Below are positions 3,922 to 55,670 of a stretch of DNA of 64,000 bases, in pieces. This DNA comes from a virus (Duplodnaviria > Caudoviricetes). The notes below the pieces were generated by a model. It was not told where the DNA came from and made no database searches. It saw nothing but the letters and a program-made list of their open reading frames with translations. Numbering within the stretch: the stretch's first letter is position 1; each line of letters begins with the position of its first letter. The DNA lies in the IMG/VR virus record IMGVR_UViG_3300046779_001841, positions 1-64,000 of that record; one strand, written 5' to 3'. The translations under genes were made by a program, and so were the position numbers.

Positions 3922-5031
3922 ATGTTAAGTTATATCTCTTTATTCAGTTGTGGTGGTGTTGGATGCTATGGATTTAAACAACAAGGTTTTGAATGTATCG
4001 CAACTAATGAACTACTTGAAAAAAGGCTAAACATTCAAAAAGCAAACAAGAAATGCAAATATGAAACAGGGTATCTTGGTGGTTCGATTTCAGATCAAAA
4101 AACTAAAGATTTGATCTATCAAGAGATTGAATATTGGAAAGAGCATGAAGGATTAAAAGAAGTAGATGTAGTGATAGCGACACCACCTTGTCAAGGTATG
4201 TCTGTTATGAACCATAAGAAGAAAGGAAAAGAAATTCCTAGAAACAGTTTAGTAGTAGAGGCTATTAAAATGGTAGAGATGGTTAAACCTAAATTTTTTA
4301 TCTTTGAAAATGTACCTCCTTTTTTAACATCTACTTGTTTAGACATAGACAATGAAATTAAACCTATACCACTAGCGATTAAAAACCATTTAGGTGAAGA
4401 ATATGATATTATTTTTGAGAAAGTAAATTTTTTAGCCTATGGTTCAAATTCTTCAAGAATTAGATGTTTAACAATAGGTAAAAGAAGGGATTTACAGAAA
4501 TCTTTTTTTGATTCTATTAGTTTAGATGACTTCTTAAAAAAACAAAAACCTAAAACAATAAGAGAATGTATAGGTCATTTGCCATCACAAGATGGCGGTG
4601 TGTATTATGAAAATGATTTGCTACATTATAGCAATAAATTACCTGATCATCATCTTTTTTGGTTTGAGAAAGTAAAAGAAGGACAAACAGCATTTGAACA
4701 AGAAGATGTTTCAAGAAGACCAAATGTGACAAATATCTTAAGTGGTAAATTTTTTAGATGTTATTGGGGTAAACCTGCACATTGTGTTCATACTATTTCA
4801 AGAAGTTTAGGTAGTCAATATACTGGGCATCCTAAAGACAATAGAACTTTTTCAATTAGAGAACTTATGATATTTCAAACAATACCAGATGAATTTAAAT
4901 GGTTTGAAGAAGAAATGACTAAAGAGAATGTAAAAAAATACAATCATAATATTAGGGAATGTATTGGTGAATCTGTACCAACTGCAATTTTTAGTCAGAT
5001 TGCACAAAACATTAAGAGTATGTTATGTTAA
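3922..5031 (+). CDS. DNA (cytosine-5)-methyltransferase 1
   Basis: Motif I FSCGGVG, motif IV ATPPCQG, motif VI FENV, motif VIII SRIR and motif X IGESVP. Confidence 0.92.
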   Translation: MLSYISLFSCGGVGCYGFKQQGFECIATNELLEKRLNIQKANKKCKYETGYLGGSISDQKTKDLIYQEIEYWKEHEGLKEVDVVIATPPCQGMSVMNHKKKGKEIPRNSLVVEAIKMVEMVKPKFFIFENVPPFLTSTCLDIDNEIKPIPLAIKNHLGEEYDIIFEKVNFLAYGSNSSRIRCLTIGKRRDLQKSFFDSISLDDFLKKQKPKTIRECIGHLPSQDGGVYYENDLLHYSNKLPDHHLFWFEKVKEGQTAFEQEDVSRRPNVTNILSGKFFRCYWGKPAHCVHTISRSLGSQYTGHPKDNRTFSIRELMIFQTIPDEFKWFEEEMTKENVKKYNHNIRECIGESVPTAIFSQIAQNIKSMLC

Positions 5032-10596: not shown

Positions 10597-12687
10597 ATGC
10601 CATATTATGTAGCAAAAGTCATGGGACAAATTTTTGCCAATGCACCTTATTATGTTCTTAGATGTCTTGTCCATTCGGATACAAAATCAGAACCAAAAAC
10701 TGTTAAAGGTAAAATCATTGGAAATACAGAAAGAGATAGTTATATTCTTTTTGAAGGCAAAGAAATTCAAGATACTTATCAAGGTGTAACAAAACCTGCT
10801 ATTGAAGTTATTAAATCACCGATTGATCCAAAAATGCTCAAAGGTGTTGCTTTAAATGAATGGCAAAAACAATCAAGTCCAGAAAAGAATAAAACATACT
10901 CGATTGCCAGCAATCTTGTATCTTGTGGTATCAATCCAAAAATCTTAAATTCTATTTGGTCTATCATTTCTAAAAATCCACAAGAGATTTTAGATAATGC
11001 TTGGCTTTTAGTCGATTATGGTATTCCATTCAAGACTGCAGATCAAATTGCACTTACTCTTAATCCAGATTCTTATGATTTGAAAAATATTCATAGAATG
11101 AAAGCCTGTGTTAAAGAAGCTATTCATCAATCTGTTATAGATGGTAATTGCTACCTTGATAGTAAAAGTATCTTTGAAAGTGTTTTATCTAATACTGGTG
11201 AAACAGATCCAAACAAGATTGCTATTCTTATTAAAGAAATGGTTAATGATAAACAAATCATTATTGAAAAAGCACATCATGGCAATGCGATCTATTTACC
11301 TAATATCCATCGTATGGAAACAGAAGCAGTCAATTATTTAACAAATCCAAATAGAAGAAAAGGTCAAAGAGAAACTATTTCTTATATCAAATCTCATAGC
11401 AAATATGATTTAACAGAAGATCAAATTGAAGCTATTCAAAGAGGACTTGAAGAACCTATCTCTATTGTATCTGGATTACCTGGTACAGGCAAAACAACAA
11501 TTTTATCTGTTCTTTGTTCTATCTTAAAAGAAAAGAAAGAAACATTATTGTTAGTCGCACCTACAGGTATTGCGAGTAAAAGACTTGCCAGTGTTGTTAA
11601 AATGGATGCGATGACAATCCATCGTGCATTTGGTGCGGGTGGTCAAGATGATGATAAAAATGTATTAAGCACTTATGAAGGACTTGTGAAAGATACAGAT
11701 AATAGTGTGAGTAGTGTCTTATCAAGAGATAATACTAGAGAACATTGGAATTACACACCAGCAAATCCAAGACAAGAAACTATTTTAATTGTAGATGAAG
11801 CATCTATGGTGGATCTACATTTACTTTGGCGATTATTAAGAGGTGTTACTTTAAATTGTAGGATTATTTTTGTAGGTGATGTTGCACAATTACCACCAGT
11901 AGGTGCAGGTTTCACTTTAGCTGATATGATGGCAAGTAAAATTATTCCATCAATTCATCTTACTAAAATCTTTAGACAAGGTGAAGGTTCTGGAGTAGTG
12001 ATTGCATCACATGATGTTTATAATGGTATTGTTCCTACTTCAAATAATGAATTTGTGTTTTTAGATAACTATTCTAATCATGATATTTTAGAAACACTAA
12101 AATCTTTATGTATGCAGTTAGAAGAAGATGAAATAGATTATCATATTATATCGCCTACTCATCATGGTGATTTAGGTTGTACAAATCTTAATAAAGTTTT
12201 ACGATCTAAACTTAATCCAACACTTTCAACATCTGTATTAAGAATTGGAAATGATGAAATTAGAGAAAATGATAAAGTCATGATCACACAAAACGATTAT
12301 GATTTAGGTGTGTTTAATGGTGATCTTGGTAAAGTCTTTACAATTAGAAAAGATAGTGTAGATATTATTTTAAGAAGTGGTGGTGGAGCATCTTCTATGG
12401 TATCAATACCTAAAGATAAAGTATCAAGTTTAATGAGATTAGCTTATGCAACCACAGTGCATAAATCACAAGGTCAAGAATATCAAGTGATCTTGATGCC
12501 ATTAGTAAGAGAATTTGGCAATTCTTTAATTCAAAGAAACTTGATCTACACTGCGATAACAAGAGCAAAACAAAAAGCCTATTTAATAGGTGATGTGGAT
12601 GCTTTAGCATTAGGTGTTGCGAATACCAGTACTAAACTTAAATATTCAAGATTAAGAGATAAACTTATTGAAAATAAATCTGTTTAA
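10597..12687 (+). CDS. recD2: RecD2-like SF1B helicase
   Basis: Walker A GLPGTGKT, VAPTGIA, IVDEASM, GDVAQLPPVG, IFRQ, AYATTVHKSQG, LIYTAITRA, plus the N-terminal extension typical of RecD2. Confidence 0.92.
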   Translation: MPYYVAKVMGQIFANAPYYVLRCLVHSDTKSEPKTVKGKIIGNTERDSYILFEGKEIQDTYQGVTKPAIEVIKSPIDPKMLKGVALNEWQKQSSPEKNKTYSIASNLVSCGINPKILNSIWSIISKNPQEILDNAWLLVDYGIPFKTADQIALTLNPDSYDLKNIHRMKACVKEAIHQSVIDGNCYLDSKSIFESVLSNTGETDPNKIAILIKEMVNDKQIIIEKAHHGNAIYLPNIHRMETEAVNYLTNPNRRKGQRETISYIKSHSKYDLTEDQIEAIQRGLEEPISIVSGLPGTGKTTILSVLCSILKEKKETLLLVAPTGIASKRLASVVKMDAMTIHRAFGAGGQDDDKNVLSTYEGLVKDTDNSVSSVLSRDNTREHWNYTPANPRQETILIVDEASMVDLHLLWRLLRGVTLNCRIIFVGDVAQLPPVGAGFTLADMMASKIIPSIHLTKIFRQGEGSGVVIASHDVYNGIVPTSNNEFVFLDNYSNHDILETLKSLCMQLEEDEIDYHIISPTHHGDLGCTNLNKVLRSKLNPTLSTSVLRIGNDEIRENDKVMITQNDYDLGVFNGDLGKVFTIRKDSVDIILRSGGGASSMVSIPKDKVSSLMRLAYATTVHKSQGQEYQVILMPLVREFGNSLIQRNLIYTAITRAKQKAYLIGDVDALALGVANTSTKLKYSRLRDKLIENKSV

Positions 12688-27716: not shown

Positions 27717-28367
27717 TCGTCTTTCTTCTCTTCTTCTATCTGCATCTCTTTCCATTGACCAAATTGCATCAGGATGCACGAAGTTCTTCTTTAAATAATT
27801 TTTCTCTTTTACATTACCTTTACCCCAATGATCTAAGAATTTTTTCATAATAACTTTATCTTTTCTTAGATCAGTAATCCATTGTTTATTTGTACCATGA
27901 TCTGCAATTACAAAAGCATTGTAACCTTTACGACTTAATAAGAAAGGTAACATATACTTCTCATCTTTAAAGAAATCTGGTGCAAAATTATTGATACGAC
28001 TAAATAGAAACCTATTCAAATCGATTGATGGAGTATTGTTTAGATACTCAGAAAGAAAAGCATGATCTGTTTTTAGATTCTTGGCATATAATAAAAACTC
28101 ACCTGTTGTTGAAAACATTTTAGAGTATTCATCTGTATGATTTAATAAATAATGATAAAATTGCATATCAATCTTAGCACCAAATGGTTTCCAAAAAAGT
28201 TCTTTCATTTCTTGATGAAAATCAGTCGCTTTTGAACGATCTTCCCAGCTTAAACCTTGTGCATTTAAAGTTGCGATCTTTTCTTCATAGGTATCAATTA
28301 AAGAAGAACTTGCTTTTTCAAGTCTAGCAAGTCTTGCTTCAAGAGAAGCAAGTTTAGTAAAATACAT
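27702..28367 (-). CDS. Leader-family protein (MYFTKLASLEARLARLEKAS)
   Basis: Leader motif, AAGG RBS and a class-L motif upstream. Confidence 0.8.
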   Translation of the reverse strand: MYFTKLASLEARLARLEKASSSLIDTYEEKIATLNAQGLSWEDRSKATDFHQEMKELFWKPFGAKIDMQFYHYLLNHTDEYSKMFSTTGEFLLYAKNLKTDHAFLSEYLNNTPSIDLNRFLFSRINNFAPDFFKDEKYMLPFLLSRKGYNAFVIADHGTNKQWITDLRKDKVIMKKFLDHWGKGNVKEKNYLKKNFVHPDAIWSMERDADRRREERRLNLR

Positions 28368-28406
28368 AGTATTAACCTTTCTGTTGTTCTTATTTTAAGA
28401 CAAGAA

Positions 28407-28421
28407 TATAAAAAGATTATT
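28407..28421 (-). promoter_or_regulatory. Class-L motif AATAA-N4-TTTATA
   Basis: AATAATCTTTTTATA, 39 nt upstream of 28367. Confidence 0.5.
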
Positions 28422-28475
28422 ATATCCATTCTATATATGGTGCTTTAGCATATATAAGTGAGAAAGGCATTAATC

Positions 28476-29024
28476 ATGTATAGAAAAAAATCAGATCTTG
28501 AACCAATGCTTGGTTATCCTGCAGGTATTTGCCAAGTTGTAGATCGAATAGATGATAATATTAAAAATGAAGATTTAGAAAAAGATCTTATCAGTAAAGT
28601 AGAAAAAGCAGAAGATTTAGACAATCAAGAAGCATTACTTGTATATCCAAGAATTTTAGAAACACCAATCGAAAACAATAAACTATATAACTTGATCGAA
28701 TTATCAAGTCATGCACAATATCGTATGGATTTACGAGGTGTTACAGTAGGCGATATTAAAGTTGCTCTTAAACATTTTGTTAAGAAATTTTATAATGAGA
28801 AATCTCAAAACACTGCTCAATATATAGTTTGGGAAAAAGCTATTCAAAGAGGTACTGATATGGTGTTTTTAGATACTAGATTAGGTAATCTCTTTTTATC
28901 TTTTGTTATTCTTAAAGGTAAAGTTGTTATCAAAACTTGTTATTTTAAAGATGAGAATAATCCAAGACCAAAGACTTGCAGAAAAAAACTTGCCATGTTG
29001 CGATTTAGATTAAATAATCTCTAA
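28476..29024 (+). CDS. Hypothetical protein with DUF4258-like HAxxRMxxRG motif
   Basis: SSHAQYRMDLRGVT. The C-terminus KKLAMLRFRLNNL resembles the leader motif. Confidence 0.6.
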   Translation: MYRKKSDLEPMLGYPAGICQVVDRIDDNIKNEDLEKDLISKVEKAEDLDNQEALLVYPRILETPIENNKLYNLIELSSHAQYRMDLRGVTVGDIKVALKHFVKKFYNEKSQNTAQYIVWEKAIQRGTDMVFLDTRLGNLFLSFVILKGKVVIKTCYFKDENNPRPKTCRKKLAMLRFRLNNL

Positions 29025-29077
29025 TTCTTCTTTACTTCTATTCTCTTATTTTCTAAAATAACTTATTCCTTTCATCT

Positions 29078-29185
29078 CAATGCCTTGTATATATTATGTG
29101 AAGAAGAAGTGTGTCAACATATACAAGGTGTTGTATTCCAGTGAGTTCTTTAATTTTCACACTTTCTTAAAGAACTAGGATACAA
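29078..29185 (+). ncRNA. Candidate structured RNA or leader (two hairpins with loop-loop complementarity)
   Basis: 15-bp stem 29078-29092/29119-29133, 10-bp stem 29144-29153/29167-29176, and loop AAGTGTG complementary to loop CACACTT. Confidence 0.45.
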
Positions 29186-29204
29186 ATGAAAGGTTTTTTC
29201 TATT

Positions 29205-29528
29205 ATGGATGAAAATGAAGATAAACAAGAATTAGATTTTGATGATCATTCTGAAATTGAATATGATGAACATATCGAAAATGTAGTTGGACACATGGAT
29301 TTTTATCAAGACATTATAATGATCTTAAAAAAAGATGGTACTAATATTGTTATTCCTTCTTTTGATGATAAGATTTCTAAAGACCAACATGATTATATGG
29401 AAAAAATCTTTGTGATTAACGATCCATCTATATTTCTAAGACTTTTTATGTGGATTGAATTGCTTTTAAAATATCTTGTTTTATATATAAGAGAACAAAT
29501 TGATAAATACAATCAAGATGAAACTTAA
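29205..29528 (+). CDS. Hypothetical protein
   Basis: 107-aa acidic ORF with AAAGG upstream. Confidence 0.65.
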   Translation: MDENEDKQELDFDDHSEIEYDEHIENVVGHMDFYQDIIMILKKDGTNIVIPSFDDKISKDQHDYMEKIFVINDPSIFLRLFMWIELLLKYLVLYIREQIDKYNQDET

Positions 29529-29965
29529 CCATGACATCTTTCAATTTCATAGACAAACCAATCTACAAGTTTATCATAATCAATAACTTGATCTTCTTTT
29601 AAATAATCATCAAGTTTTGGATGTAGTGAATCAATACAAATCCAATTTTCAAGATCTTCTTCATTCAAACAAGATTTAAAGCCAACAAAATATTCTACTT
29701 CATCATGGTCCCATATATCTATTTCAAAAGCATAGCTACCATTTTTATTTGAAGCAACAAATTTAATTTTTTGTTGTGTTGCAACAAATCTAAAATCTTT
29801 TAAGTTTCTTTGTTGAAGAAGAGAACCAATATATTCATAAAAATTGAGATCAAAGTTTTGCATTTTTGCATCCTTTTTGAAAAAGTCATTATTGACATAT
29901 AGATAACACTTATCATAATGCAGTCTTTGCAACCAATCTTTAAAAAGTTTTAAAGTATTTATCAT
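29525..29965 (-). CDS. Hypothetical protein
   Basis: The ORF extends to 30013. ATG 29965 (MINTLK) preferred. Confidence 0.6.
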   Translation of the reverse strand: MINTLKLFKDWLQRLHYDKCYLYVNNDFFKKDAKMQNFDLNFYEYIGSLLQQRNLKDFRFVATQQKIKFVASNKNGSYAFEIDIWDHDEVEYFVGFKSCLNEEDLENWICIDSLHPKLDDYLKEDQVIDYDKLVDWFVYEIERCHG

Positions 29966-30013
29966 TTCTCTTTTAATATACTTTACATTCTTTTTTAAAA
30001 AGAGAGATTTCAC

Positions 30014-30328
30014 ATGAAAACTTTACTTCTTGTTATGCTTCTTCTCACTGCTTGTAGTGGTGATGAAAAGAAAGATACTCAAACTCAATCTGATTCTTCT
30101 TTAATTGATATGATGGTAATTGATATGTCTATTACTGCCAGTGATTTAGAAGTACATTCCACTATGGATTTAGAAGTCCAAAGTGACTTGATGATTGATA
30201 TGGAAACACCTGTTGTTGATATGGAAACACCTATGGTTGATATGTCAGTCTTAGATATGTCTAGTTCGGATATGGCATCTGCATCCGATATGAGTGTTGT
30301 TGATATGACAAACACCACGGATATGTAA
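30014..30328 (+). CDS. Putative lipoprotein with Asp-Met repeat tail
   Basis: Signal peptide MKTLLLVMLL plus lipobox LTAC (Cys14), and ten DM dipeptides in the C-terminal 75 aa. Confidence 0.75.
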   Translation: MKTLLLVMLLLTACSGDEKKDTQTQSDSSLIDMMVIDMSITASDLEVHSTMDLEVQSDLMIDMETPVVDMETPMVDMSVLDMSSSDMASASDMSVVDMTNTTDM

Positions 30329-30559
30329 ATGTTGGATCATCCTAATAATAAAGATTATGTTCTTAATGCTGTTAAACAAGATGGTATGCTCCTACAATAT
30401 GCTAACGATCTTTTAAAAGATGATTTTGAAATCGTATATGAAGCAGTCAATCAAAATGTTTTTTCTTATGAATATGCCAGTCTAAGACTTCAATCTGATA
30501 TTGTAATCAAAATGTTTGCATTAAATAAAATTTTCTTAAGTAAGTATCACAATCTTTAA
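30329..30559 (+). CDS. DUF4116-like repeat protein
   Basis: KDYVLNAVKQDGMLLQYANDLLKDDFEIVYEAV. Confidence 0.7.
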   Translation: MLDHPNNKDYVLNAVKQDGMLLQYANDLLKDDFEIVYEAVNQNVFSYEYASLRLQSDIVIKMFALNKIFLSKYHNL

Positions 30560-44925: not shown

Positions 44926-45429
44926 ATGATTAGTCAAAAATTAGCTTCTTTAGAAGCAAGAATCGTCAAGTTAGAACAATCTGGCAACAAACAAGCAAGT
45001 CAAACTCGAAATGCAGGTTGGACACCAGGTTCTGGTGCTATGCCAACAGCTAAAGATCTTTTTAAGAGTATTGGTTTATATTTAGACAAAAGACATAACA
45101 TTAGCTGGGAATTAAAACATGATAAGTCACAAGGTAATTCTGGCAATGGTATGATTGAAATCAAATTTGGTGAAGACTATTCTGTTGGTGATCCTGGTTA
45201 TACTGCAAGTGCAATATATGACTTTCGAGTAAGAACAGATTTGATGTCAGGTGAAACACAACTTATTTTTAATATTACACCAACAAAAGAATTTAGAGGA
45301 TTTGCTTCTAGTAAGACTTTTGTCCTTGATTTTTATCAAGGACAACCACAAAGAGAATGGGATATGCAAATCATTCAAATTACAGAATGGCTACAAAAAT
45401 TTCATGATAATTTAGAATCAAACTATTGA
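44926..45429 (+). CDS. Leader-family protein (MISQKLASLEARIVKLEQSGNKQAS..RNAG)
   Basis: Leader motif, with RBS region identical to 42003. Confidence 0.85.
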   Translation: MISQKLASLEARIVKLEQSGNKQASQTRNAGWTPGSGAMPTAKDLFKSIGLYLDKRHNISWELKHDKSQGNSGNGMIEIKFGEDYSVGDPGYTASAIYDFRVRTDLMSGETQLIFNITPTKEFRGFASSKTFVLDFYQGQPQREWDMQIIQITEWLQKFHDNLESNY

Positions 45430-45761
45430 TATTTTTTAATCCATTCATGTTCTGTACCTAGACCACAACAATATTTACTATCTTCTATCGTCCATTGTGT
45501 TCTTGATTTTCCTCTTTTAGATTTAAGTGCTTTCTCAGCTTTCATTGCAGTTGAACGATCTGGATATGTTCCATATAATGCTTTTGGCACCCAAGGTCTA
45601 TATTTAGAGGTATAGGTGGCTCCACCATGTATCTCTCCATTATGTTGCCTTAATCTTCTTTCATAATCTGTAGTGCATCCTACATAATAAAAGCCTTCAA
45701 GTTCTTTACCTGTTTTACTATATCTCTTCTGTTGAGATTGAAGTACATATACATACCACAT
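45423..45761 (-). CDS. SLX1-like GIY-YIG endonuclease
   Basis: WYVYVL, YYVGCTTDYERRLRQHNG, GGATYT..RPW and AMKAEKALK. Confidence 0.88.
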   Translation of the reverse strand: MWYVYVLQSQQKRYSKTGKELEGFYYVGCTTDYERRLRQHNGEIHGGATYTSKYRPWVPKALYGTYPDRSTAMKAEKALKSKRGKSRTQWTIEDSKYCCGLGTEHEWIKKYQ

Positions 45762-47016: not shown

Positions 47017-47064
47017 TTTTATAATCATCTCTATTAAAAAATCTATATATCATTGGAGATGATT

Positions 47065-48852
47065 ATGAAACCTACTTTATCAGAATTTATTGATTCAGCT
47101 AAAGAATCACTACTTGCTATTATTGAACAATCTAAAAGATTAAAGAAAACTTTCAACACTGAAAGAACTTTTGTTGCAGAATTGAAAACAAAAGCAAATT
47201 TTAAGAAATTTATGAAAGACTATGCAGGTAAAAAAAACCTAGAAACTAGAATCAATCCACTATCATATATTGTTAGAGATGCTTTATTTGACCCAACTTA
47301 TGATTTAAATGCTAAACTTATTGATTTGGAATCTTTCCTAAGAATGTCTTATAAAGAAACTTATCCAGAAGATACAAAAGCAGAAAGAGAAAGAGAAAAA
47401 AGAAGTAAAGCATTTGAAAAAGATGTTCGTGGAACACAAAAAGCAGAAACACAAGCTAAGAAAGATTATGTTGCGATCTTTACTACAATGAACTCTGTAT
47501 TACAAACAGATTTTACACAATCAAATGGTAACAGTCGAGTATTTACAAGTAAATTGAAAGCCTATGGTCAAAGTTCAAATAATGCTATTGGCAAATTCAT
47601 TGAAACATATTTTGCAGGTAGTGATAATGCAGAAAGCAGGATTAACACTTTTATCTATGCAATAAGAGATAACTACTTTCCATCCACATCACCAGATGCA
47701 CCTAAAAATCCAAGAGCAATGTTTGATAAAAAACTTGCAGGTATTGTTAAGTCATCACATAAAAATAGAGTGTTAAATGAAGAAAGAGAAGCACTAGAAT
47801 CTGTTATTCCAGAATCCTTTTTGCAATATTTACCAAGTACTTTAATCGTTGAAGTAGATAAGAACAGTAAAATCACAAAGATCCGATCTAAATTTGCAGA
47901 AAGAATTAATGACATTGGTGCAAAAATTGAAAGACAAAAAGATTTACTCAAGAACTTAACTAAACTTGAATTGAAAATCAAAAAAGATCTTAAAAGCACT
48001 GATCATGATACTAAGATGAAAGCACTTATTATCTATTTAATGCTAGATACTGGTATTCGACCTGGTGCAGAACAAAATAAGATTAGAAATCCTGATTTTG
48101 AAGTCGATGCTCTTACAGATGAAGATGATGAAGATGAATATGATGAATTTTTAGAAACTTATGGTGCGACCACTCTTAATAAACAACATATTCTTTTTGT
48201 TAGAGAGAATTTTATATCTTTAAAGTTTAGAGGTAAAAAAGGTACAATCAATTTGGCAGATATAAGTGATGCAACTTTAGTTAAAGCCATTAAAGATCTT
48301 GTAGAGAAAACACGAAATGTGGAAAGAAGTAATTATCTTTTCTTAGATAGTGCAGGTCAAATTTTTGACCAACCAAAAATCACTGCATATTTAAGAGCAA
48401 TTATTCCTGGTCTTAATTTAACAGATTTTAGAAAATTGAAATCATCAAGAGTTCTTTTAGATGCTTTAAGAGAGAAACAAGAAATTCTTTTACAAAAGAT
48501 TTATGATTTGAACCAACAACAAGTAGAAGATTTAAAAGAACAAGTCATTTCTTTAATTGAAGAAGTTGTTGAAGAATCTTTTGAACAATCTATGGTTGCA
48601 TTAAGTCATCAGAATATGAACACTACTATTAAATCTTATATCAATCCACAAGTCTTACTTAATTTCTTATCCACTGGTAAAGTAGCAGATAAACTTGAAG
48701 ATATTGTTTTAAATCAACAAAATTTGAAATTTGACCCACAAGTCTTTATTACATCTGCAATAGCTTATGGTAGTGCTATTGGTGAATTGACACAAGGTGC
48801 ATCAACAACAAGGACTGCATCTTTAAGAGAATTGTTTAGAATGATAGCTTAA
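47065..48852 (+). CDS. DNA topoisomerase IB with long N-terminal extension
   Basis: TGIRPG (catalytic R), YGATTL, FRGKKG, DFRKL and LSH...KSYINP (catalytic H and Y). ATG 47065 is 7 nt after GGAG. Confidence 0.85.
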   Translation: MKPTLSEFIDSAKESLLAIIEQSKRLKKTFNTERTFVAELKTKANFKKFMKDYAGKKNLETRINPLSYIVRDALFDPTYDLNAKLIDLESFLRMSYKETYPEDTKAEREREKRSKAFEKDVRGTQKAETQAKKDYVAIFTTMNSVLQTDFTQSNGNSRVFTSKLKAYGQSSNNAIGKFIETYFAGSDNAESRINTFIYAIRDNYFPSTSPDAPKNPRAMFDKKLAGIVKSSHKNRVLNEEREALESVIPESFLQYLPSTLIVEVDKNSKITKIRSKFAERINDIGAKIERQKDLLKNLTKLELKIKKDLKSTDHDTKMKALIIYLMLDTGIRPGAEQNKIRNPDFEVDALTDEDDEDEYDEFLETYGATTLNKQHILFVRENFISLKFRGKKGTINLADISDATLVKAIKDLVEKTRNVERSNYLFLDSAGQIFDQPKITAYLRAIIPGLNLTDFRKLKSSRVLLDALREKQEILLQKIYDLNQQQVEDLKEQVISLIEEVVEESFEQSMVALSHQNMNTTIKSYINPQVLLNFLSTGKVADKLEDIVLNQQNLKFDPQVFITSAIAYGSAIGELTQGASTTRTASLRELFRMIA

Positions 48853-52676: not shown

Positions 52677-55670
52677 TCAAGTAGCAGAAAGATCACCAAA
52701 AAGATACCATTCAGTAGATGTTCTTTTAACAAGAGTTGCACCTGAATATTGACTTGCTAAAAATCTATTACTTGAAGCTGATCGTAAAGTATCTGTAGTT
52801 ATCAATACTTGAACTGTACCTGTACCATACCTAGAAATCAAGATTTGTGTTCCAACAGGGAAAGCAACAGATGAATTAGCAGGTATTGTTAAAGTCAAAT
52901 TACTTGCAGAGTTAAACTCAATCATTTTACCTTCATCACCAATAACAAGAGTATAACTTGTAGTTTGAGTATTAACAGCAACTCTAGTCGCAGTTTGAAC
53001 ATAAGCAGTCGTTGCGATCTTTGTTGAATTATCTAATGCAGTTTGTGTAGTAGCAGTTGATGTTGAAGATAGTGTAATAGCACCACTACCACTAAAAGCA
53101 ATACTACCTGTAAAAGTCTTAGTTCCTCCTATGGATTGACTACTTGAAGTATCTACTGCATCAGTTATTCCATATCCAGATAAAGTAGTAGGATTTGTTC
53201 CAGCAGTAACACGACCATAAGTATCTACTGTAACAGATTTATATGTTCCTGCAGTAGCAATACCACTTGTTAAAGCAATAGTTGGTGTAGCACCTTCACC
53301 TGTATTATTAGTTAATGTGATACCCGCACCAGCAACAAGATTTGTAACATAATCACCAGTGGTATCTGTACCTAAAGCAACACTATTACTTGCAATAGTT
53401 GCAGTTATGGTTATATCTGCACTACCATTAAAAGATGCAGATCCAGATAAATCACCACCTAAAGAAATTGTTCTTGATGTTGTTAATGTAGATGCAGAAC
53501 CACTTACCGATCCAGAAATAGTATTTGATACTGTTAAATCTGTAAAAGTTCCACTACCAAATTTAACATTACCAACAGTACCACTAAAGACTTCACTTGT
53601 ATTAGTAGCATCAGGAATAAAGGTAAAGACACTTAAACTATCATCATAACCAAAGAAACCAACTTTGGCAGAAGTACCATTATGCCATCTAAATTCAACA
53701 CCACGATCTTTATTATCATCAGTAGAAGGTGCAGTATCACCACCTAAAGTAATAATAGGATCATCTAAAGTCATTGTAGTGCTATTTACTGTAGTTGTTG
53801 TACCATTCACTGTTAAATTGCCAGTGATTGCAACATTGTCAGATAAAGTAGTCGTCCCACCTGTAGAACTGATTGTTAAATTACCTGATGAAGTAGAAAT
53901 ATTTGCATTAGCATATAAAATACTAGAAAAAGTTTTTTCACCACTAATAGATTGATTACCTGTAGTAGCAACGAAAGTAGATGTATCTAAAGACCAAGTG
54001 TTTGCACCAGTCTTTTGTAAATAACCTGTACCACCATCAGCCAAAGAAGCAATAGCATTTAAATCACCATCATATGCTTGAACATCAGTGCCAATAACAA
54101 GACTTAAATTAGTTTTAAGTGCAGAAGCATCTGCAAGACCAATAAGAGTTCTACCATAAGAAGTTAAATCGGTAGTAGTGAAAGTATCATCACCAGTGGC
54201 ATAAATCACTTTATTCGCACTTGTTGAAACACCAGCTAAAGCAGTTAATGTTGCATCTAAAGGTTGTCCATCAATGATATTATATCCAGATAAAGTAGTA
54301 GGATTTGAACCAGCAGTTACTCTACCATAAGTATCCACTGTAACAGATTGATAAGTGCCAATAGTAGCAACATTACTTTCAAGACCAATCGTGTGAATAG
54401 CACCTTCACCACTATCACCACTTAAAGAAATACCATTACCTGCAGAAATACTTGCAACATAATCACCAGTGGTATCATTACCTAAAGCAATAATAATTTC
54501 ATCAAGAGAAGTAGCAATATCAACATCAGCAGAACCATCAAAAGCAACAGAACCTGTAAGAACACCACTTAAAGAAATAGTTCTTGAATTAGTTAAAGTA
54601 TCAGCACTTTGAATAGAACCTGTAATAGTGTTGGTAACAGAAAGATCAGTAAATTCACCACCACCAAAAATAACATTTCCAGCATTACCACTAAAAACAT
54701 CATTGAGATTAGTAGCATCTTCAATAAAAATGAATTTACCTGTGCTATTGTCATAACCAAAGAAACCTATTTTAGATGCACTAGAAATAACACCAGTACC
54801 TGTTGTACCAGCTTGGGAAAGATCACCATTATATGTAAAACTTAAACCTACTGTATTAGAATCTGCACCAATTTGAGTGAAGTCAGTATTGCCTATTGTT
54901 ACGATATAGTAAGATTGACCCATGACCATAGTGTCTGGAGTAATAGCAGAAGTACCATCATGCCATCTAAATTCGATACCACGATCTTTGCTATCATTAA
55001 GTAAAGGAGGATTATCACCACCAAGAACAAAGATAGGATCATCAATAACAACAACATTGCTATTAATAGTAGCAGTTTCACCTTGAATAGTAAAATTACC
55101 AGTAATGTTAATATCACCTTCGATATTCATATTATCTTGAATAGTGATTTGACCTGTTTGGCTGGATAAGACAAGATCACCATTATGTGTACTGATACCA
55201 ATATCTGCATAAACAGTACCATCAACATGAGCGCTACCAGCAACATATAAATCACCATCAGTATTAATATCACCAGAAGCACTATCAACAGAAAAAGTAG
55301 TATTAGAATCATGTATAGTGGAAATGGAATAAGAATCTGATGTTTCACTAACAAGTTGAATATTATTTTGAGCAACAAGACCACTTAGGAAAGTAGCGAG
55401 TTGATCAAAATCTGTATCACTAAGCATAATAAGATTACCACCATTAGATGAAATATTATTAACACCAGTAATGTCATTGCCATTGAGATCAATATTTGTG
55501 ATAGGTGCAGTATTACTTAGGTTAGCAAGAGCAACTTCAAAACCACCAATGGTTGTACCATCATGTATTCTTAGTGTCTTTAAAGTGGTATCAATGGTAA
55601 GTTCACCATTTTGACCTTTATATAGATTATTTTGAGCAGTAGTGCCTTTTTTAAAAGTGACAATAGCCAT
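52677..55670 (-). CDS. Tail fibre protein (997 aa)
   Basis: Mtd/hyaluronidase-type N-terminus (FKKGT...GELTIDT...RIHDG..GG), Thr/Gly-rich shaft with an internal duplication, and a C-terminal TLTIP...FPVGTQI...WYLFGDL domain. Confidence 0.85.
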   Translation of the reverse strand: MAIVTFKKGTTAQNNLYKGQNGELTIDTTLKTLRIHDGTTIGGFEVALANLSNTAPITNIDLNGNDITGVNNISSNGGNLIMLSDTDFDQLATFLSGLVAQNNIQLVSETSDSYSISTIHDSNTTFSVDSASGDINTDGDLYVAGSAHVDGTVYADIGISTHNGDLVLSSQTGQITIQDNMNIEGDINITGNFTIQGETATINSNVVVIDDPIFVLGGDNPPLLNDSKDRGIEFRWHDGTSAITPDTMVMGQSYYIVTIGNTDFTQIGADSNTVGLSFTYNGDLSQAGTTGTGVISSASKIGFFGYDNSTGKFIFIEDATNLNDVFSGNAGNVIFGGGEFTDLSVTNTITGSIQSADTLTNSRTISLSGVLTGSVAFDGSADVDIATSLDEIIIALGNDTTGDYVASISAGNGISLSGDSGEGAIHTIGLESNVATIGTYQSVTVDTYGRVTAGSNPTTLSGYNIIDGQPLDATLTALAGVSTSANKVIYATGDDTFTTTDLTSYGRTLIGLADASALKTNLSLVIGTDVQAYDGDLNAIASLADGGTGYLQKTGANTWSLDTSTFVATTGNQSISGEKTFSSILYANANISTSSGNLTISSTGGTTTLSDNVAITGNLTVNGTTTTVNSTTMTLDDPIITLGGDTAPSTDDNKDRGVEFRWHNGTSAKVGFFGYDDSLSVFTFIPDATNTSEVFSGTVGNVKFGSGTFTDLTVSNTISGSVSGSASTLTTSRTISLGGDLSGSASFNGSADITITATIASNSVALGTDTTGDYVTNLVAGAGITLTNNTGEGATPTIALTSGIATAGTYKSVTVDTYGRVTAGTNPTTLSGYGITDAVDTSSSQSIGGTKTFTGSIAFSGSGAITLSSTSTATTQTALDNSTKIATTAYVQTATRVAVNTQTTSYTLVIGDEGKMIEFNSASNLTLTIPANSSVAFPVGTQILISRYGTGTVQVLITTDTLRSASSNRFLASQYSGATLVKRTSTEWYLFGDLSAT

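Follow-up and report, generated by a model that had tools for sequence, protein, structure and literature searches.

The window, a stretch of 64,000 nucleotides (64 kb) that corresponds to bases 1–64000 of an IMG/VR virus record (316,221 bp, about 30% G+C), derives from an uncultured jumbo phage (316 kb), and its genes include a ribonucleotide reductase, a RecD-like helicase and tail-fibre-like genes. The element described here sits in a 180-nt gap between two + strand genes, 28458–29024 and 29205–29528, the second of which is followed by a convergent − strand gene (29525–30013). Neither of the two flanking proteins, of 188 and 107 aa, respectively, matches a Pfam family or a PHROG; homologs of both were found in protein searches. 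The 107-aa protein has homologs at 65–72% identity, with 13 clusters among 1.8 billion representatives, and its AF2 model is poor (pLDDT 54). No terminator-like site was called in 28000–30500, and the sole promoter-like site (29031–29059) agrees at 9 of 12 positions, which is the level of chance; no promoter conserved among the relatives was seen by eye, and the repeated promoter core of this genome, AGTGTTATA, does not occur close to the element. A mini-ORF running from ATG to TGA (29186–29212, MKGFFYYG), with AGGA 5 nt upstream, overlaps the start of gene 29205; it was considered as a leader peptide and dropped, as it has no counterpart among the relatives.

The preliminary description of this locus had proposed two intergenic hairpins, in positions 29078–29185, whose loops could pair with each other. 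Both stems were recovered exactly: the first (29078–29092/29119–29133) has 15 pairs, including U29081–G29130 and G29082–U29129, and the second (29144–29153/29167–29176) has ten Watson–Crick pairs around UUUUCACACUUUC. RNAfold returned these two hairpins together with an outer third stem, which, when more flanking sequence was included, corresponds to 29068–29075/29186–29193. The true span of the element is thus 29068–29193, with a closing stem, P1, that had been overlooked, and the element does not end just before the RBS of gene 29205, as had been thought: the RBS-like AAAGG falls within P1. The features of the locus are as follows:

28458–29024, +: upstream gene, 188 aa, conserved hypothetical; outside the element, and replaced by a different neighbour in the relatives
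29068–29193, +: whole RNA element, a three-way junction of about 126 nt (MFE folds; covariance model R1)
29068–29075, +: P1 5′ strand, CCUUUCAU, paired with 29186–29193 in the MFE fold
29078–29092, +: P2 5′ strand (stem 1 of the preliminary description), with the conserved base CAAUGCC at 29078–29084
29100–29116, +: loop L2, GAAGAAGAAGUGUGUCA, 17 nt, nearly invariant in the family
29107–29113, +: kissing segment of L2, AAGUGUG, pairing with 29158–29164 and covarying in homologs
29119–29133, +: P2 3′ strand, with the conserved base GGUGUUG at 29127–29133
29134–29136, +: junction J2/3, UAU here and UAA(U) in most members; unpaired in the MFE fold, conserved columns
29137–29139, +: P3a 5′ strand, UCC, base of arm 3, pairing with GGA 29178–29180
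29140–29143, +: asymmetric internal loop of P3, here AGUG; in the family, the corresponding alignment columns keep a U-G-A
29144–29153, +: P3b 5′ strand (stem 2 of the preliminary description); MFE fold, family helix 6
29154–29166, +: loop L3, UUUUCACACUUUC, 13 nt, nearly invariant, with the kissing segment CACACUU at 29158–29164
29167–29176, +: P3b 3′ strand; MFE fold, family helix 6
29178–29180, +: P3a 3′ strand, GGA; MFE fold, family helix 5
29181–29185, +: junction J3/1, UACAA here and AAC(G) in most members
29186–29193, +: P1 3′ strand, AUGAAAGG, holding the Shine-Dalgarno-like AAAGG (29189–29193), 11 nt before the ATG
29205–29528, +: downstream gene for a conserved hypothetical protein of 107 aa, whose N-terminus is acidic and whose C-terminal helix is long

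A basal stem had also been proposed between 29131–29139 and 29178–29185, in competition with the end of the first stem. Its UCC/GGA part is conserved as the base of P3, whereas the rest of this pairing, and with it the competition, is not. Taken alone, the window sequence is weak evidence for structure: in a single-sequence test on 29070–29195, the fold has a z-score of −1.43 for the + strand and of −2.83 for the − strand. The − strand of the window thus folds better by itself, and the strand is settled only by the G–U pairs conserved across the family.

Relatives of the element were collected by several routes. Six loci were obtained by scanning metagenomes with an alignment of the 107-aa homologs, and further members came from DNA-pattern scans of IMG/VR based on the conserved loops and from a search via GIY-YIG proteins, so that the collection comprises 34 homologous elements, 31 of them distinct, in phage and lake-metagenome contigs of 27–51% G+C. 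A covariance model, R1, was built from ten of the sequences; it scores all 34 candidates at E 4e-9 or lower and matches the window at 29061–29207 with 122.9 bits (E 1e-26). Five phage records, among them the 316-kb genome of the window, each have exactly one R1 copy, and the carriers range from a 37-kb genome, complete and bounded by terminal repeats, up to contigs of 275–340 kb. In the genome of the window, no second copy was detected by BLAST or by R1, and a genome repeat or promoter element of this phage was rejected on account of the single copy. The records of cultured phages yielded no family member and no close relatives, and no IMG/VR loci were found via the two flanking proteins. Thirty pattern matches in bacterial and archaeal genomes, obtained in a scan that fixed the UGUG core only, were dismissed as chance, since they lie inside coding sequences and lack the flanking motif.

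The earlier failure to match the element to a known family holds against Rfam 15 (4227 models), which gave no match at the gathering threshold in the 64-kb window or in 16 related loci; for 28950–29300, at E values up to 10, only chance matches to snoRNA, sRNA and leader models of 13–20 bits were obtained. Full-text searching of the literature, which was not exhaustive, gave no description of such an RNA family. The window displays all the features by which the family is recognized, namely the P1–P2–P3 junction, GAAGAANAAGNNUGUCA in L2, UUUUCANNCUUUC in L3 and complementary NN positions in the two loops, and the element is a member of a previously uncatalogued phage RNA family of about 125 bases.

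The strongest support for the fold comes from covariation. In a model-guided alignment of the 31 distinct rows (A9), standard pairs occupy 89.3% of the pair cells, compared with 37.6–49.1% when the partners are slid by one to three columns; the alignment is fitted to the model and so somewhat favours the structure, but the margin is large. Changes on both sides are seen in 43 of the 52 pairs, and none of 500 shuffles matches the observed values. The homolog collection called for by the preliminary description shows pairing that is kept through compensation. Such changes occur at 15 of the 16 pairs of P1 and in P2 (helices 2 and 3), where the tandem U–G/G–U becomes C–G/A–U in some members; P3a (helix 5) is 85.8% paired, with both-side changes at four pairs, and P3b (helix 6) is 98.3% paired, with both-side changes at eight of eight. 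Almost all of the homologs, when folded singly, again give the three-way junction, and RNAalifold recovers the junction as well.

Four G–U positions are conserved, at the last pair of P1, in the tandem U–G/G–U at the base of P2 and at one pair of P3b, and they are replaced by Watson–Crick pairs in some members. Since the complementary strand would have A–C mismatches at these positions, it is the + strand that folds, and the suggestion of a + strand structured RNA with a loop–loop contact is borne out by the 34 homologs. Some 45 positions vary little or not at all, among them GAAGAANAAGNNUGUCA of L2, UUUUCANNCUUUC of L3, UAAU of J2/3, UGA of the P3 internal loop and AAC of J3/1. The loops and the junction are thus nearly invariant while the stems drift, and the lengths of the arms are conserved. 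P1 varies from 6 to about 23 bp across the family, and the junction strands are very short, of 0–2, 3 and 2–5 nt.

The two arms are joined by a loop–loop helix. The pairing of AAGUGUG (29107–29113) with CACACUU (29158–29164) lies where the preliminary description had placed it, and its two central pairs covary in the homologs. The second pairing proposed between the loops (29097–29104/29154–29161) is not conserved, and it borrows bases of an apical stem that is specific to the window. In the window, the loop–loop duplex has an energy of −9.7 kcal/mol, which is equalled in 236 of 5000 composition-preserving shuffles (4.7%); this frequency is explained by the composition of the loops, rich in purines in one and in pyrimidines in the other. 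Across the family, the 7-bp helix is 99.1% paired, and the two central pairs change from U–A to G–C in eight rows and from G–C to A–U in 12, with G–U in one. The kissing segments of the members are as follows:

AAGUAUG/CAUACUU: 11 members
AAGUGUG/CACACUU: 10 members
AAGGGUG/CACCCUU: 9 members
AAGUGUG/AACACUU: 2 members, with one terminal mismatch
AAGGAUG/CAUCCUU: 1 member
AAGGGUG/CAUCCUU: 1 member, with one G–U pair

Five complementary core variants are therefore present (UG/CA, UA/UA, GG/CC, GA/UC and, with a G–U pair, GG/UC). The closely related GIY-YIG loci alone hold four core variants, which can be linked via the G–U intermediate. In a pattern scan that left the four core letters free, all 26 matches were complementary, and when four loop pairs were tested in all combinations, the cognate one had the best energy every time. 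Covariation of this kind does not reveal whether the two loops that pair belong to the same molecule or to different ones.

The unpaired 5′ part of L2 (29100–29109 in the window, aligned columns of A9) is built of AAN triplets, AAG-AAN-AAG, in which N (G, C or U) is the only variable base; L003 departs from this pattern. AAN triplets are a pattern that the distal face of Hfq binds. Two roles considered for the element were abandoned: mimicry of Shine-Dalgarno and anti-Shine-Dalgarno sequences by L2 and L3, as the likeness is confined to the GGUG/CACC variant, and antisense pairing to rRNA, as comparison with three 23S and two 16S sequences gave chance 8–12-mers that leave the conserved loops uncovered.

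In the window, AAAGG (29189–29193) is the sole Shine-Dalgarno-like sequence of gene 29205–29528, and it is base-paired in P1. The relatives L002–L007 carry the same AAAGG within a 14-bp P1, with a series of G–C, G–U and A–U replacements, and in the GIY-YIG loci L011, L012, L059, L062 and L068, whose P1 sequences are quite unlike those of the window group, GGAGG lies inside P1; in L008 and L062, the AUG is paired as well. A Shine-Dalgarno sequence or start codon paired in a stable leader stem, as in RBS-sequestering leaders, is accordingly found in the window, L002–L007, L008, L011, L012, L059 and L062. The start region is outside P1 in the terS loci (L064–L069), in L065, in an AT-rich subgroup and in L086, where the Shine-Dalgarno-like AAGGA is left free. 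The idea of a leader fits the window and its group, with the RBS in P1, and does not extend to at least two members, which have no downstream gene on the same strand.

The genes around the element, taken from mechanical ORF calls, differ from locus to locus. The element stands directly upstream of the 107-aa homolog in six of the six metagenome loci that encode one, with about 140 nt before the gene that align with the window, and the gene on its other side is unrelated to the 188-aa gene. A more distant case is L086, a phage contig of 43% G+C, in which a 95-aa protein, 32–36% identical to the 107-aa family, is encoded 3′ of a divergent copy of the element, the two forming a unit (4480–4905) flanked by two opposite-strand genes. 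At six other loci, the element precedes URI-domain GIY-YIG genes with products of 84–130 aa (PF01541 was confirmed in three of them, at E about 1e-18, and the other three were assigned by BLASTP homology). Altogether, 10 of the 34 matches precede small GIY-YIG genes or the 107-aa family. In four loci, the element is found just before a likely small terminase gene (terS, assigned by eye from the N-terminal sequence), which is followed by a likely large terminase (terL) of 523 aa. Other downstream genes encode a radical-SAM-like protein, small membrane proteins and unrelated small proteins. At 20 of 27 loci, an ORF starting with ATG begins 28–53 nt after L3. In L083 and L085, the element ends its transcription unit and faces only a convergent gene; in L088, no ORF on the strand of the element lies within 200 nt of it, and in L089 the element heads an operon in a divergent intergenic region.

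The genome of the window itself has a gene (45423–45761, −) for a small GIY-YIG protein homologous (E 2e-12) to those found 3′ of the element elsewhere, and this gene has no element upstream. A polymorphism for the presence of the element was observed between L057 (1440–1510) and L059 (1300–1513), which share the same upstream end (...DYLH) and the same GIY-YIG gene: in L057 the gene pair is joined by a TGATG stop/start overlap, without an element, and in L059 the pair is parted by a spacer and the element with its own GGAGG. In L009, ARAGORN reports a "tRNA-???" (11825–11896, −), unusual in its anticodon loop, about 4 nt after the model match (11900–12043); the sequence is below the threshold of the Rfam tRNA model, which makes the call doubtful, and the AGGAGG and ATG that precede it open only a 26-codon frame overlapping the tRNA-like sequence. 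Because the upstream neighbour varies in both the window and the GIY-YIG groups, the element and the small gene that follows it look like a movable cassette.

On these grounds, we tentatively regard the window element as a cassette-borne 5′ leader that gates the translation of gene 29205–29528, a reading that is plausible if not quite probable. The RNA would fold as a three-way junction in which the loops of P2 and P3 join in the 7-bp helix and P1 closes the fold, and P1 would thereby pair the only Shine-Dalgarno-like sequence of the gene. By clamping the two arms, the loop–loop helix would stabilize the closed form, and ribosomes would start only on molecules with an open fold, or with a fold that something engaging the conserved loops has opened. 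The invariant loops would be the obvious site for whatever opens or reads the fold; we infer that translation is reduced or gated and that a trans-acting partner or a condition acts on the loops. Three observations stand against such a gate: occlusion of the RBS is not universal in the family, two or three members lack a downstream gene, and about 45 near-invariant nucleotides in phages of 27–51% G+C exceed the need of a simple RBS lock. Because occlusion is patchy and conservation excessive, the function at the level of the family may differ, the RBS overlap being an added use.

One such function would be that of an autonomous non-coding RNA, whose loops and junction bind a conserved host or phage factor, or whose copies join hand in hand via L2 and L3, like those of the phi29 pRNA, the RBS overlap being a side effect because phage genomes are compact. 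This is consistent with the single copy per record in five phage records, with the unrelated neighbours (the 107-aa gene, GIY-YIG, terS–terL, radical-SAM-like, membrane proteins or none), and with near-invariant loops and junction combined with drifting stems and conserved arm lengths; pairing between molecules fits the covariation as well as pairing within one, and the AAN triplets of L2, in which N alone varies, agree with it too. It is nevertheless rather unlikely for the element, which is nearly always co-oriented with, and near, a downstream start codon, whose tie to one protein family holds down to 32% identity, and whose P1 reaches over the Shine-Dalgarno sequence or AUG in three lineages with a co-adapted 5′ strand; the lack of a terminator-like site in 28000–30500 also argues against a separate RNA. 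The wider possibility of a new autonomous class of phage RNA, in which the loop–loop core is the working part of a single-copy module present in very different phages, be it a ribozyme, a ring-assembling RNA or an RNA binding a universally conserved host factor, is somewhat unlikely. A new class of self-cleaving ribozyme that processes the polycistronic transcripts of phages is improbable. Its distribution would be that of phage ribozymes (single copy, intergenic, on the gene strand, beside arbitrary neighbours and once by a tRNA-like gene), and a three-way junction clamped by a loop–loop contact in the manner of hammerheads, with many unpaired invariant nucleotides, fits the idea; no known ribozyme family matches, however, the hammerhead core (CUGANGA, GAAA) is missing from the junction strands, the prior for catalysis in any new motif is low, and cleavage alone would not release an RBS held in P1.

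The remaining explanations have less in their favour than the translational leader. The element had been called riboswitch-like, and a small ligand bound at the junction or at the loop–loop complex could stabilize P1 and turn translation off, in keeping with the purine/lysine-like architecture (a three-way junction with parallel arms joined by their loops), the conserved junction nucleotides and the RBS in P1 of several lineages. However, the junction strands are very short (0–2, 3 and 2–5 nt), the length of P1, from 6 to about 23 bp, is not that of a stem tuned to a ligand and at its upper end makes P1 too stable for ligand dependence, the controlled genes have no metabolic theme and some members lack a downstream gene, so that a ligand-driven switch is quite improbable and a classical riboswitch unlikely. 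A conformational switch, also suggested previously, finds no support in the competing basal stem and the alternative loop pairing, which are not conserved. An element acting on RNA polymerase, either a put-like processive antiterminator or a branched leaky terminator, is very improbable: the complete 37-kb genome G002, where the element lies just before terS–terL, L089, where it heads an operon in a divergent region, and the run of U4–U6 after P1 in the window group and several GIY-YIG loci would agree with it, but in the window and GIY-YIG groups one small gene is followed by a convergent gene, some members lack the U-run, no site resembling a terminator was called and no similarity to Rfam was seen. 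As for a signal in the DNA (operator, origin or packaging site) or chance inverted repeats, the slightly better folding of the − strand of the window in the single-sequence test and the lack of significance of the window's own fold are what could be quoted for them. Such explanations are extremely improbable in view of the compensatory changes at 43 of 52 pairs, the G–U pairs valid on one strand only, the lack of recurrence within the genome and a position relative to terS that is not conserved, and strand-specific covariation rules out the DNA-level signal.

The architecture is closest to those of the purine and lysine riboswitch aptamers, the phi29 pRNA and the hammerheads, and by the testable features that define membership it belongs to none of them. 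In the purine and lysine riboswitch aptamers, a three-way or multi-way junction bears arms joined by a loop–loop helix. The phage element shares with them a closing P1 able to hold the RBS and arms of conserved length with pairing loops; its loop–loop helix has 7 bp, compared with 6 bp in the lysine riboswitch, and the internal loops of its arms could supply the bends that are needed. It differs in being found in phages only, in its far shorter junction strands and in a P1 that is very long in some members; no match to RF00167 or RF00168 was obtained, and its downstream genes are heterogeneous. The phi29 pRNA (RF00044) is a phage-encoded RNA with paired ends, a three-way junction and mutually complementary loops that covary. 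The likeness extends to the length of about 120 nt, the paired 5′ and 3′ ends, the junction with two arms ending in complementary loops and the phage origin. Unlike the pRNA, which is a separately transcribed gene and has four complementary bases, the phage element has seven and is embedded in an mRNA leader; its carriers, which are not phi29-like, have terS/terL terminases (the 37-kb phage) or are jumbo phages (275–340 kb), and Rfam gave no match to RF00044.

Hairpins that sequester the RBS precede homing-endonuclease and late genes of T-even phages (I-TevI, mobE and gene e). As in these leaders, a folded leader pairs the RBS of a small gene, often for a nuclease, and moves with that gene, whereas the kissing loops of the phage element are invariant and unrelated to the RBS, the RBS lies in the closing stem, and many members precede genes that do not encode nucleases. 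The hammerhead ribozyme has a three-way junction with a tertiary loop–loop contact and is common at arbitrary intergenic sites of phages, and three helices, two of them hairpins with interacting loops, are shared with it. Membership of the hammerheads was rejected, as the core is absent: the sequences of the junction strands are U or CU, UAA(U)... and AAC(G), and only UGA is kept before P3b; no Rfam match to the hammerhead was found at E values up to 10.

The element represents a new RNA family, and its architecture follows known principles, matching that of the best-studied RNA switches and of the phi29 pRNA. This well-supported family, absent from Rfam 15, comprises 34 members with 43 covarying pairs and a tertiary loop–loop helix backed by covariation, and it is present as one copy per genome in uncultured phages of 37 kb to more than 300 kb. 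Its size of about 125 nt, its defined pseudoknot and the compensatory variants that occur in nature make it a tractable target for experiments. Each of the readings would, if true, add to the picture of how phage transcripts are controlled or processed, be it by a gate that accompanies small and perhaps harmful genes, by a ribozyme, or by an RNA that assembles with itself or binds a factor.

Elsewhere in the window, a 76-aa protein (30329–30559) consists of a single DUF4116 repeat (PF13475, E 2e-17), a 599-aa protein (47053–48852) has the catalytic core of a eukaryotic-type topoisomerase IB (PF01028, E 1e-11) and a 997-aa protein (52677–55670) carries an Mtd_N domain, the N-terminus of the major tropism determinant (E 4.5e-7).
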